10,867 nt of DNA from a virus (lineage: Duplodnaviria > Heunggongvirae > Uroviricota > Caudoviricetes): positions 1 to 10,867 of the IMG/VR virus record IMGVR_UViG_2537561979_000004. One strand, written 5' to 3'. Position 1 is the first letter of the stretch; the number at the start of each line of letters is the position of its first letter. A program made the position numbers and the translations under genes. The notes under the pieces are model-generated. The model did not search any database. It was not told the DNA's origin and saw nothing but the letters and a program-made list of their open reading frames with translations. Positions 6,792-10,867 of this stretch are shown in pieces.

Positions 6792-6895
6792 ACAGCGAAT
6801 CAGATCAAATAAAACGCACATTTGTTAACATTTACACAAAGTCTGCGTGGGATATTCTGAAAGAATATCCATAATGTGGAGAGAATCTATTGAAG

Positions 6896-7000
6896 TGCAT
6901 GGTGCCGGGTGCCTCCCGGTGAACAAAATGTTCGTGATACCTGTCGGCGACAGAAAAGGTTAATGGTATCACCCCACCGCACAGGGGGATTCACCATGCA
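6896..7000. repeat. 105-bp nested dyad-symmetry element (outer 9-bp inverted repeat enclosing four hairpins)
   Basis: Outer TGCATGGTG (6896-6904) / CACCATGCA (6992-7000). Inner hairpins: CCGGG-tgcct-CCCGG (6905-6919), GAACA-aaa-TGTTC (6921-6933), GTGATACC...GGTATCAC (6934-6972) enclosing the palindrome CTGTCG-g-CGACAG (6941-6953), and CCCC-n8-GGGG (6972-6987). Confidence 0.5.
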
Positions 7001-7320
7001 GGAGTTTTCTTAGCAAACTCACTGCGCGCCCGGCAACTCCCAACCACATAAAATGCGGAGTTTGTGGTATTTATGCATATAACTCGCAGGAATTATCTTA
7101 AAAAACTGATGTCGATCCGGATTAAAAAGAAGCAGGTCATCATCAGATGACTGGAAAAAAGGAAAACAAAAAATACTCATCATACAGTTTTGATTGCAGG
7201 GATGAGCCTGCTATGCACAATATGCAGAATATAAGCAAGATAAAAATATGCAGGCATATTATTTCGGATTTTGTTATTAACACAACCTTTTTAATAATCA
7301 TTTGGCATACAATAAACCAG

Positions 7321-7777: not shown

Positions 7778-8320
7778 TCAAGCCATTTTCTCAGCAAATG
7801 ATTCACGCATGGGAATATATAGGGCATACTCAGCAACAGCTAACCAATTAGCAATCCGTTTTTCGCATGTGCTAAAACACCACTCTGGGTGTGCATCATT
7901 TAGCAATTCAGCCATTTTGCGCTTAGTCATCCCCCGCCCTTCATAGCGTTGCCGGAGAATGCAAATCAATCCTGGATGCTCTGCCAGCACCTCACTTATG
8001 ACTCGATCAATACATAACGCCTCTGCATCAGTACAATGCGCCAGCCAGCTCTTTTGCTTGCCGTTGATCATCTCTCGCAAAAACGCTTCCAGCTCAGCTT
8101 TCTCTATTCCCGCTTTTTTCATTCTGCGCAGGGCTTCATTAATGGCTGTTTTCGTCAGTTTTTTGGATGCCAACAACTGATTGAACATATTCCCTGACCT
8201 GCCACCGCCAATATACGACCAGCGCCCCCACATACGTAGTTTTCCCTGAATCCAGACACTTTCCAGCGTGGTGAGGCGAAGGTGTTCTCCGCTTTTTCCT
8301 GTATTCGTTGGGTAAATCAT
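7778..8320 (-). CDS. Putative late-gene antiterminator Q-like protein (family assignment tentative)
   Basis: 180-aa ORF translationally coupled to the upstream gene (ATGA overlap at 8317-8320). It is the last gene of the nin-like block before the lysis cassette, the canonical position of Q. Sequence family not verified. Confidence 0.5.
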   Translation of the reverse strand: MIYPTNTGKSGEHLRLTTLESVWIQGKLRMWGRWSYIGGGRSGNMFNQLLASKKLTKTAINEALRRMKKAGIEKAELEAFLREMINGKQKSWLAHCTDAEALCIDRVISEVLAEHPGLICILRQRYEGRGMTKRKMAELLNDAHPEWCFSTCEKRIANWLAVAEYALYIPMRESFAEKMA

Positions 8321-8607
8321 AAATGACCTTTCTTTCTCCAGATTTCTTGTGTGCGAAAAACCCCTTCAGCATGCATCAGGCGCAATTCTTCTTTGGTGTA
8401 ATCGCTGGTTTTTACCCGCCCGTCGATTAGATCGTGGCATGAGCTACAGGCTATCGCCGCCTGCATATCGTGTGGTTTTGTCGCTGTTCCGCACGTCCCC
8501 GCCAGCCTGTAATGCGCCAGCACAGAGGTTTCGGGATTGTGATTGCAGTAGCCAGGGATTCTGATCTGGCACATCTGGCCTTTAGCCGCTTTACGTAAAT
8601 TCACCAT
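8317..8607 (-). CDS. Small Cys-rich phage nin-region protein (DUF1364 / YbcO-like, putative zinc-binding)
   Basis: 96-aa ORF MVNLRKAAKGQMCQIRIPGYCNHNPETSVLAHYR...CSSCHDLIDGR with four or more Cys in two clusters. TAATG overlap with the upstream gene. Family recalled from memory. Confidence 0.5.
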   Translation of the reverse strand: MVNLRKAAKGQMCQIRIPGYCNHNPETSVLAHYRLAGTCGTATKPHDMQAAIACSSCHDLIDGRVKTSDYTKEELRLMHAEGVFRTQEIWRKKGHL

Positions 8608-9206
8608 TACGCAAACTCCAGTAGTTGTGCGGCCACATTTTCAACTTCCTCCTGAGAGGAGAATTTACGAAACAGAATCCAGTTCCACAGCACATTCAGT
8701 ACAGATTTATAAACCTGCTGAAACTCGACTTCGTCCATATTCGCAAAAGCGATGGATTTTGCCCGACGCCCACGGCTACCGTCCGGATAAATATGCTCGG
8801 TGTAAAATCCGGCCTGAATGGTTACCCACTCGCGGAAAGCCTCAAACGACTTTAGCAACGCCGTATCCCGGGTTCTACGAGTCGCAACGGTGTTAAGGTA
8901 TTGCTCTGCGGCATCACTCAGGGCTGGCGTGTGTTCCCGACCAACTGATTCGCACAGGTAATCAACGAAACCAGACAGCAGTTCTCGTTCGCGAGGCGTG
9001 ATCGCCCCACCGACCGGAGTCCAGTAATCGAATCCCAGTTGCAGGAGTTTGAAAAAACGCTTGTGGAATGCGTAGTTACGCACACGCTTAAAGTCTGCGT
9101 GTATCCACTCACCTATTTTGATTTGATGCAGAAAATCGCAACTCTCCGGCGTCGCCGGGAGAAGTAAACCAGAAGAAGTTTGTTTGACCAGTTGTATATG
9201 CGCCAT
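8607..9206 (-). CDS. Phage nin-region protein (DUF1367-like, resembles Rac YdaW-type proteins)
   Basis: 199-aa ORF, first gene of the coupled three-gene block, with a candidate promoter upstream. Family by recollection and context only. Confidence 0.45.
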   Translation of the reverse strand: MAHIQLVKQTSSGLLLPATPESCDFLHQIKIGEWIHADFKRVRNYAFHKRFFKLLQLGFDYWTPVGGAITPRERELLSGFVDYLCESVGREHTPALSDAAEQYLNTVATRRTRDTALLKSFEAFREWVTIQAGFYTEHIYPDGSRGRRAKSIAFANMDEVEFQQVYKSVLNVLWNWILFRKFSSQEEVENVAAQLLEFA

Positions 9207-9573: not shown

Positions 9574-9978
9574 AGTAGCCACATGATAAGTTGCTGGAAT
9601 CATATTTCCCACTCAAGTCATTAACATTTGATAAGATATATCTAAAAGGACGCCTTTACATTATTTATGTGTATATAATTTATTTATATACACAGTAAAG
9701 GTATCCTGGGAAAATATTTATCGTTAAAAAATACATCATAAATAATTAAGCTGAAATTTCAGAACACAACTAATACACACAATAAGGTTCAGTAACAATA
9801 ATCTATGTGGACTACATCGAGATTTTTTGATTAAACTTTAATAACTTATTCCTAACACACAGAATGCATAAACTAAAAGTAAAACAAATAGTTATACAAA
9901 AAACAACCATATTTATTATATCTTCTCCTCTAATCAACATATCAATTATGTGTTTCATAACAGCTTGACATAACCCTC

Positions 9979-10007
9979 AAAAACACGCATTTATAATGCA
10001 TGTTTTT
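9979..10007 (+). promoter_or_regulatory. Promoter -10 (TATAAT, 9992-9997) embedded in an imperfect inverted repeat AAAAACACGCAT-ttata-ATGCATGTTTTT resembling an NsrR operator
   Basis: 12-bp arms with one mismatch. The core AACACGCATTT-a-TAATGCATGTT matches the 11-1-11 NsrR consensus (AAnATGCATTT-n-AAATGCATnTT, recalled from memory) at about 20 of 22 positions. A TTGACA at 9965-9970 is 21 bp from the -10, too far for a canonical -35. Confidence 0.45.
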
Positions 10008-10019
10008 GAGGAGGTGGTT

Positions 10020-10358
10020 ATGACACACAAGAGAATTCCTAAAGATTGGGTAATCAAACGCTCAACTCCGTTCTTCACAAAAGAGAACGTACCTTCAGCG
10101 TTATTAACACATCATAATACAGCAGCAGGTGTTTTTGGGCAGTTGTGCGTAATGGAAGGCACTGTAACATATTATGGTTTTACTGATGAGAATGCTACTG
10201 AACCGGAGATAAAAGTAGTCATTAATGCTGGCGCTTTTGCAACAAGCCCACCACAATACTGGCACCGTGTTGAACTAAGCGATGATGCTCAGTTTAATAT
10301 TAACTTTTGGGTCGCTCCAGACTTCTCGGGCGAAAAAGTCTATAGCACCAAAAAATAG
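10020..10358 (+). CDS. YeaR-like DUF1971 family protein (TehB N-terminal-domain-like)
   Basis: ATG at 10020 with GAGGAGG 6 nt upstream. Protein MTHKRIPKDWVIKRSTPFFTKENVPSALLTHHNTAAGVFGQLCVMEGTVTYYGFTDENATEPEIKVVINAGAFATSPPQYWHRVELSDDAQFNINFWVAPDF... shares the RSTPF...H.T..GV...L.VM.G.V.Y.G...E..EP......AG.FA..PP..WH..E...D..FNI.F.VAP pattern of E. coli YeaR as recalled. Confidence 0.7.
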   Translation: MTHKRIPKDWVIKRSTPFFTKENVPSALLTHHNTAAGVFGQLCVMEGTVTYYGFTDENATEPEIKVVINAGAFATSPPQYWHRVELSDDAQFNINFWVAPDFSGEKVYSTKK

Positions 10359-10387: not shown

Positions 10388-10425
10388 AGACCCGGCAGGG
10401 CTATCCCCGACGGGTCTCATTTTTG
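10388..10425 (+). terminator. Probable rho-independent terminator downstream of the yeaR-like gene
   Basis: Stem AGACCCG / CGGGTCT (10388-10394 and 10411-10417) with an internal GGG-ctat-CCC mini-hairpin, followed by CATTTTTG. Confidence 0.45.
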
Positions 10426-10591
10426 TAAATATATTGGTTCTACATTGACAGGAGACTTCAACCATAAGAAGTAATCTGAATACTTGAGCAATAAATTTAC
10501 TTAAGATTAATGAGCGCACCTTGCCGGACAAAGATAAACCAAGGTAACACCTTTTTTCTAGCCAGTATGTAATCAATCAGAAAGCCGCTCC

Positions 10592-10867
10592 GGTGATGCT
10601 GCCAACTTACTGATTTAGTGTATGATGGTGTTTTTGAGGTGCTCCAGTGGCTTCTGTTTCTATCAGCTGTCCCTCCTGTTCAGCTACTGACGGGGTGGTG
10701 CGTAACGGCAAAAGCACCGCCGGACATCAGCGCTATCTCTGCTCTCACTGCCGTAAAACATGGCAACTGCAGTTCACTTACACCGCTTCTCAACCCGGTA
10801 CGCACCAGAAAATCATTGATATGGCCATGAATGGCGTTGGATGCCGGGCAACTGCCCGCATTATGGG
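10592..10867 (+). mobile_element. IS1 insertion sequence, left end (GGTGATGCTGCCAACTTACTGATTTAGTGTATGATGG...), continuing beyond the window
   Basis: The left terminal inverted repeat and the following 276 bp match IS1 as recalled, with at least one substitution (CAACTGCCC here versus CAACAGCCC as I recall it). Confidence 0.9.
10647..10867 (+). CDS. insA: IS1 InsA (5' portion; 3' end outside the window)
   Basis: GTG start at 10647 reading [74 protein letters not shown]. The 10618-10830 ORF in the track is the wrong frame of the same DNA. Confidence 0.85.

Follow-up and report, generated by a model that had tools for sequence, protein, structure and literature searches.

The 10,867-nucleotide (nt) stretch analysed here, hereafter the window, is IMG/VR virus record IMGVR_UViG_2537561979_000004 (Caudoviricetes), and it carries a small gene of the DUF1971 family with an operator of the NsrR type overlapping its promoter. 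We found that this gene is located inside a Rac-type lambdoid prophage, in the nin or accessory region and antisense to the phage early genes, and that its product is, by sequence comparison, a member of the subfamily typified by Salmonella STM1808 and not an orthologue of Escherichia coli YeaR. Weighing the evidence set out below, we consider it likely that the prophage carries a functional DUF1971 gene under NsrR-dependent, nitric oxide (NO)-responsive control.

The operator was scored with a palindromic weight matrix derived from the 26 distinct 23-mers that the chromatin immunoprecipitation sequencing (ChIP-seq) paper on NsrR in CFT073 lists in its Table 4 (PMC5320621). The first-pass annotation, made from the sequence alone, had pointed to an 11-1-11 inverted repeat with the −10 at its centre, and this reading held up: the 23-mer AACACGCATTT-A-TAATGCATGTT scores 20.7 bits, fits the consensus AAGATGCATTT-n-AAATGCATCTT and falls inside the range of bound sites (8.7–30.6 bits in leave-one-out scoring of the published sites; ygbA 20.9, yeaR 22.5, hmp 17.9), where it ranks about 7th–8th among the 26. 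The runner-up position in the window reaches 12.4 bits. By the exact score distribution, the chance probability per position is 4e-8 at E. coli composition (~0.2 sites per genome) and 2e-6 at 30% guanine-cytosine (GC) content. In an empirical control over 853,516 real genomic positions, 17.9 bits was reached or exceeded at 106 sites, of which 98 stand no more than 60 nt upstream of a DUF1971 start; one of the remaining eight is the K-12 yeaR operator, and the others lie in three marine loci. Of the two half-sites, the right one is strong, its 12.1 bits being close to the upper quartile, and the left one is mediocre at 8.4 bits, against a published median of 10.0. Judged by the matrix, the window allele is a good but not optimal NsrR-type site.

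Searches for other regulators were negative. No convincing IscR type-2, FNR or CRP site was seen in a comparison by eye with their consensus sequences, and the NarL heptamers that the first-pass annotation had proposed looking for did not materialise: TACYYMT does not occur within 320 nt upstream of the gene, an expression that also misses the known yeaR site and hence has low power. The CFT073 ChIP-seq tables contain no such NsrR target, the presence of the gene in CFT073 not having been checked.

The operator is conserved across species. We scanned one genome per species, giving 80 loci (53 from Enterobacterales and 27 from marine gammaproteobacteria). An NsrR 23-mer of 20.7–30.4 bits, centred 27–39 nt upstream of the ATG, accompanies 52 of the 53 enterobacterial orthologues, the lone exception being Leclercia adecarboxylata, which has a 1-nt deletion in the site. 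The marine loci differ: in 20 of the 27, norV-norW (the anaerobic NO reductase genes) lie directly 5' of the gene, and these loci (Vibrio, Photobacterium, Aliivibrio, Shewanella and Agarivorans) have no NsrR site, an arrangement that looks like a conserved extension of an NO-reductase operon. Two marine loci without norVW have NsrR-type sites of 28.5 and 18.3 bits, and in Neptunomonas the gene adjoins that of an Rrf2 regulator, which matches the NsrR equivalog best (171 bits vs. a cut-off of 182). The DUF1971 family is therefore tied to NO by two independent routes, NsrR sites in the Enterobacterales and norVW linkage in the marine loci.

Several further observations were made at these loci. 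The NsrR-like Rrf2 regulator gene of Neptunomonas is divergent from sufB, and in both Neptunomonas and Parendozoicomonas strong NsrR-like 23-mers (18–24 bits) stand near, not directly upstream of, the DUF1971 gene (at 1962–2019 in locus L073, at 1966 and 4034–4091 in L081, and at 2315–2361 in L074). In Parendozoicomonas, a small methyltransferase-like open reading frame (ORF) with two such boxes precedes the DUF1971 gene, resembling a split TehB. Separately, a Fur-box-like element, GATAATGAGATTTATTATC, lies ~75 nt upstream of the ATG, and upstream of the −35, in the orthologues of Kluyvera, Leclercia, Pantoea, Buttiauxella and Silvania (L010–L031), with 13–17 of 19 matches to the Fur consensus vs. 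typically 10 in background windows. It is absent from the Salmonella/Klebsiella clade, and in the Rac copy it is degraded by a 7-nt deletion plus substitutions (aligned to window positions ~9938–9962). NsrR-independent NO induction of STM1808 has reportedly been observed, and the Fur-box-like element may be linked to it.

The first-pass annotation had called the gene YeaR-like; the family assignment stood, and the comparator did not. The product matches the Pfam profile for DUF1971 (PF09313; 92 bits, cut-off 23.1, E=2e-26), its residues 14–94 covering profile positions 1–80 of 80. Identity to K-12 YeaR is 44% (44.3%) over 97 residues vs. 77–82% to the STM1808-type subfamily overall, so the proper comparator is STM1808 rather than yeaR-yoaG. 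The individual values are 79.5% to the Salmonella protein (itself identical to LT2 Q8ZP13, annotated ‘cytoplasmic protein’), 76.8% to the Klebsiella homologue, 74.5% to that of Vibrio fluvialis and 80–82% to those of Kluyvera, Pantoea, Leclercia and Enterobacter. In S. arizonae and S. diarizonae, dsbB is followed immediately by the orthologue; since dsbB is STM1807, the Salmonella orthologue is STM1808. An entry citing Karlinsey et al., 2012, lists STM1808 as ‘putative cytoplasmic protein; NsrR regulon’ with a reported role in virulence.

A search of the PDB placed the ‘tellurite resistance protein B’ structure 3DL3 (119 amino acids (aa)) first, ahead of YeaR 3BB6 (E=3.5e-59 with 86 of 111 residues identical, vs. 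E=1.6e-24); with a 77%-identical structure available, the fold of the DUF1971 protein is already solved. The 3DL3 sequence is nearest to norVW-linked homologues of Aliivibrio. Both 3DL3 and the N-terminal domain of Haemophilus TehB (3M70) are related to the prophage protein, which however has no methyltransferase domain. A full TehB (an S-adenosylmethionine-dependent methyltransferase) was rejected as an identification: against the NCBIfam TehB equivalog the protein reaches 49 bits where the cut-off is 303, and the match is confined to its N-terminal third (profile positions 11–106 of 289). RefSeq names for the identical protein differ by genome, being either ‘DUF1971 domain-containing protein’ or ‘TehB family protein’; the second label is misleading, because the methyltransferase domain is missing and the score is far below the equivalog cut-off. 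Within PHROGs, the gene matches family 34268, annotated ‘unknown function’. Residues H31, H32 and H82 are present in the prophage protein and invariant in all 80 species loci, and the residues of STM1808 needed for zinc binding and NO resistance are reportedly H32 and H82. The product of the prophage gene is, on our reading, a small, cytoplasmic and probably metal-binding protein.

The DUF1971 ORF is maintained under purifying selection. Against Rac allele L004, it shows seven synonymous differences and one non-synonymous difference, and against chromosomal orthologues the proportion of non-synonymous differences (pN) is 0.10–0.14 while that of synonymous differences (pS) is saturated at 0.8–0.96. 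A 339-nt gene of the same extent is annotated by RefSeq in the identical DNA of many E. coli genomes. The program-made ORF list starts at an alternative in-frame ATG at 9996, which falls within the operator; the alignment of orthologues gives this codon no support as a start, and the same alignment keeps the GGAGG of the Shine-Dalgarno (SD) sequence.

The prophage gene and STM1808 share, besides their identity and the three histidines, a length of ~112 aa and an NsrR 11-1-11 site near the ATG that overlaps the promoter. They differ in locus (nhaB-dsbB-[gene]-ycgN vs. the nin region of a Rac-type prophage), in operator-to-ATG spacing (39 nt vs. 27 nt in the prophage copy), in the −10 hexamer, which is displaced by 4 nt in the prophage copy, and in ORF composition (~51% vs. 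41% GC; 47–55% across the chromosomal orthologues). Positional orthology (nhaB-dsbB-gene-ycgN) is lacking, and the prophage gene is a horizontally transferred homologue (xenologue) of STM1808. Its closest relatives are the chromosomal DUF1971 genes of Kluyvera, Leclercia, Pantoea and Buttiauxella (80–82% identity, spacing 29–30 nt), in which the −35 hexamer, operator and SD can be aligned with the prophage copy and which, unlike it, stand among housekeeping genes, such as murQ and a phosphotransferase system (PTS) gene in Kluyvera. Homology of the phage copy to these relatives begins ~90 nt 5' of the ATG; the phage lineage therefore captured the gene along with its promoter and operator. The E. 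coli yeaR-yoaG operon, which NsrR represses and NarL activates, shares the DUF1971 domain and an NsrR 11-1-11 promoter site, AAATGGTATTTAAAATGCAAATT (22.5 bits), but it differs in protein identity and in locus (leuE-yeaR-yoaG), and the prophage has no yoaG partner: between 10358 and IS1, no plus-strand ORF of at least 40 aa, and hence no yoaG (DUF1869), is found 3' of the gene.

The prophage occupies the ttcA site, and the window matches E. coli FORC_082 at 100% identity except for additional insertion sequence (IS) elements in the latter. The order of the prophage is int-xis-recET, through the replication genes (ydaV, DUF1627, DUF977), variable cargo and the DUF1971 gene (on the opposite strand) to DUF1367, DUF1364, DUF1133 (Q-like), the lysis genes, trkG and the tail fibres, so that the gene sits between the replication and Q modules. 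For the 543-nt DUF1133 gene, the annotation in phage vB_EcoS-666R9 reads antitermination protein Q. The DUF1971 gene is preceded by a spacer of 813 nt with 30% GC, and IS1 starts 233 bp 3' of the gene. The first-pass annotation had placed the gene at a junction between prophage and IS1, which proved mistaken: in relatives free of IS1, the prophage runs on beyond that point through replication genes, recET and int, and IS1 is therefore a secondary insertion and not the prophage boundary. The first-pass description of the region as AT-rich and horizontally acquired held, and NO-stress-linked cargo, which it had also proposed, is plausible. The coordinates of these features are collected in Table 1.

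Table 1. Features of the window around the DUF1971 gene (positions refer to the 10,867-nt window).
Feature	Position	Strand	Remarks
DUF1971 gene, STM1808 subfamily	10020..10358	+	112 aa, ATG 10020, TAG 10358
NsrR-type 11-1-11 operator, predicted	9982..10004	.	AACACGCATTT-A-TAATGCATGTT, 23 bp, 20.7 bits
Extended 37-bp palindrome	9975..10011	.	Arms 9975–9991 and 9995–10011, 17 nt each, 16/17 complementary, 3-nt centre
TTGACA, −35-type hexamer	9965..9970	+	Read from sequence
TATAAT, consensus −10 hexamer	9992..9997	+	At palindrome centre, inside operator; read from sequence
Shine-Dalgarno GAGGAGG	10008..10014	+	5 nt 5' of ATG; overlaps right end of palindrome; read from sequence
Probable intrinsic terminator	10388..10424	+	7-bp GC-rich stem AGACCCG/CGGGUCU, inner 3-bp stem, then UCAUUUUUG
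Phage genes DUF1133 (Q-like antiterminator), DUF1364, DUF1367	7778..9206	-	Opposite to DUF1971 gene; ORFs and annotation of identical DNA
IS1 left end, cut by window end	10592..10867	+	Homology to IS1-free relatives stops at 10591; IS1A annotated there in SCZE5

The gene is carried by 464 of 5426 complete E. coli genomes (~8.5%; 287 at ≥99% identity and 171 at 95–99%), and it is also found in Shigella flexneri, in three induced phages (vB_EcoS-666R9, -673R7 and -613R10) and in 36 IMG/VR viral contigs. PLSDB contained no close plasmid copy, the matches there being homologues on chromosomes or megaplasmids at 72–75% identity; two of the places in the E. coli records that carry the gene are on plasmids. 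In K-12 Rac, ydaW is fused directly to the rzpR pseudogene (12753–13645 in locus L130), and this deletion took DUF977, the cargo slot, the DUF1971 gene, the Q-like module, holin and lysozyme, all of which the window keeps. Because K-12 Rac has lost this segment, the gene went unseen in K-12-based studies of NsrR.

Variation around the gene was also recorded. What fills the cargo slot on its far side depends on the Rac variant (hypothetical proteins, QueH, Hok/Gef together with KilA-N, or a YobI-type P-loop nucleoside triphosphatase), and this slot seems to be a hot spot for accessory genes. An arrangement like that of a composite transposon, with an IS1 copy on either side of the DUF1971 gene, is seen in strains SCZE5, XH993 and ECJXMCRH7 (12410–13107 and 14144–14841 in locus L002), and in strain ET734 the gene is split by an IS1X2 element. 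Elsewhere in the window, the minus strand at 6843–7029, between the tolA-like and Q-like DUF1133 genes, matches the Rfam small RNA family STnc100 (86.6 bits vs. a gathering score of 47).

We propose that the gene is a self-contained accessory gene, or ‘moron’, of the nin region that has been joined to the host NsrR regulon. It lies antisense between phage modules, has an AT-rich ORF and is variably present, with a promoter and terminator that are predictions. Both candidate −10 hexamers (9988–9993 and 9992–9997) and the expected start region are covered by the operator. In the absence of NO, holo-NsrR, with its [4Fe-4S] cluster, would sit across the −10 and start region in vivo and block RNA polymerase; NO would nitrosylate the cluster, NsrR would leave the DNA, and the gene would be transcribed. 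We infer these steps of occlusion and relief because they are established for NsrR. The transcript would have a short leader starting inside the right arm of the palindrome and would end at the gene's own terminator, whose hairpin carries a fold z-score of −1.95 and is of moderate confidence; a simple terminator scan called nothing, missing it because its loop exceeds 8 nt. A lysogen would thereby gain a second NO-inducible DUF1971 protein besides core YeaR, and the protein may, by analogy with STM1808, support growth under nitrosative stress.

Prophage genes regulated by host factors have precedents in sodCI on Gifsy-2 and in the Fur-controlled stx promoter. The DUF1971 gene resembles such morons in having its own promoter and terminator, as predicted, and a host stress regulator; it would differ from them in responding to NO by way of NsrR. 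Among DUF1971 genes, control by NsrR is already known for yeaR and STM1808, and a ‘tehB homolog’ was predicted in the NsrR regulons of enterobacteria and Photobacterium profundum (Rodionov et al., 2005). Within the searchable literature, we found no report of an NsrR-controlled prophage gene, and searches on DUF1971 with NsrR, Rac with NsrR, and prophage with nitrosative stress returned nothing on this gene; that a Rac-type prophage brings an STM1808-type gene and its operator to a substantial minority of E. coli and Shigella thus appears to be undescribed there.

Several features of the promoter and operator weigh against NsrR-dependent control and lend themselves to another explanation, namely that the operator is a relic that was captured with the gene and is now decaying, with the result that NsrR has ceased to repress this allele effectively, or else that the AT-rich locus is silent. 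The TTGACA and TATAAT hexamers are separated by 21 nt and not 17, and the hexamer at 17 nt is CATTTA (9988–9993). A simple promoter scan did not call the TTGACA-N21-TATAAT pair, because of this spacing, and the same scan made no call on Rac allele B. The chromosomal orthologues, in contrast, have TTTACA or TTGACG in the −35 column at a constant distance to the operator and a −10 at 17 nt; the scan calls TTTACA-17-TATTTT in Leclercia and TTGACG-17-CATATT in Klebsiella, the −10 occupying 23-mer positions 7–12 in both. As the scan calls the orthologue promoters and not the Rac copies, the choice of −10 in the Rac copy is ambiguous, and the irregular geometry makes promoter strength and start site uncertain; the canonical −10 of the orthologues has been lost. 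Position 5 of the left half-site is a C, which occurs in none of the 52 published half-sites, and the window allele is the weakest among enterobacterial loci bar two, 6–10 bits below most orthologues (20.7 vs. 26–30 bits). Among Rac alleles, 17 of the 41 positions of 9974–10014 (operator plus SD) are polymorphic, vs. 36 of 254 upstream (14%) and 20 of 336 in the ORF (6%; Fisher p=1e-4 and 5e-9, respectively), although the 50 nt immediately 5' of this segment hardly vary. The spread of operator scores across E. coli alleles (17.7–28.6 bits) could reflect relaxed constraint. The degradation of the Fur-box-like element of the closest clade would fit the same explanation.

Other evidence speaks for an operator still in use. 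The score of the window allele equals that of ygbA and exceeds that of hmp, both genuine targets, and the right half-site in particular is strong. All 13 of the 13 Rac alleles retain a recognisable 11-1-11 site at the same position, most of them at 25–28 bits, and the ORF downstream remains under purifying selection. We therefore regard decay of the operator as unlikely, and we continue to favour a functional gene under NsrR-dependent control.

An extended palindrome surrounds the operator in the window, reaching beyond the 23-mer as it does in some alleles only, and it could have a second or different role. In transcripts reading through from outside, its CCUC arm may sequester the GAGG of the SD in an RNA hairpin and so insulate translation; alternatively, it may act as a DNA cruciform or as a site for a phage protein. 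Folding predicts a stable hairpin (−21.9 kcal/mol, z=−5.6, on the plus strand; −24 kcal/mol, z=−9, on the minus strand), its right arm terminates in the SD sequence, and pairing is kept by two double changes between alleles, at 9976/10010 (C-G to A-T; Shigella has a one-sided intermediate) and at 9979/10007 (A-T to C-G). However, covariation is not significant: only three pairs show two-sided changes, a number that is reached in 179 of 500 shuffles. The outer stem is broken in alleles C and D, the chromosomal orthologues have no extension beyond the 23-mer, and transcripts from either candidate −10 would be without the left arm. Template-switch mutation in quasi-palindromes yields paired changes without selection, and the paired changes in the polymorphic operator are suggestive of this process. 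On balance, a distinct role for the palindrome strikes us as improbable. The remaining alternative, ordinary yeaR at its native chromosomal locus, has the shared Pfam domain in its favour and is refuted by the 44% identity and the different locus, as the alignment and locus check called for by the first-pass annotation made clear (K-12 yeaR lies between leuE and yoaG, whereas here there is no yoaG and Rac is at the ttcA site); we give it practically no credence.

Elements of these explanations can be combined with NsrR-dependent control, if only tentatively. A temperate phage may have captured an NsrR-regulon gene together with its operator, giving ~8.5% of E. coli strains (and Shigella) an NO-inducible defence protein, while the operator may also evolve fast by template switching to give alleles of 17.7–28.6 bits with lineage-specific repression; alleles A and B, which extend the palindrome into the ribosome-binding site, could in addition block translation of read-through transcripts. 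We hold this joint reading to be possible and, as a whole, rather doubtful.

The core genome of E. coli has yeaR as its sole DUF1971 gene, and STM1808 has no core counterpart there. In Salmonella, STM1808 is reported to contribute to NO resistance and virulence. About one in 12 E. coli genomes acquires a gene of this type via a Rac-type prophage, with a predicted operator for the host NO sensor attached. If functional, this would amount to lysogenic conversion for nitrosative-stress tolerance, which may be relevant to the inflamed gut, macrophages and the urinary tract, and the strain-specific NsrR regulon would extend beyond the reach of K-12 and CFT073 studies. The natural operator alleles offer a ready series for studying the DNA-site requirements of NsrR, and DUF1971, a poorly understood family, is linked to NO both by its NsrR sites and by its norVW linkage.

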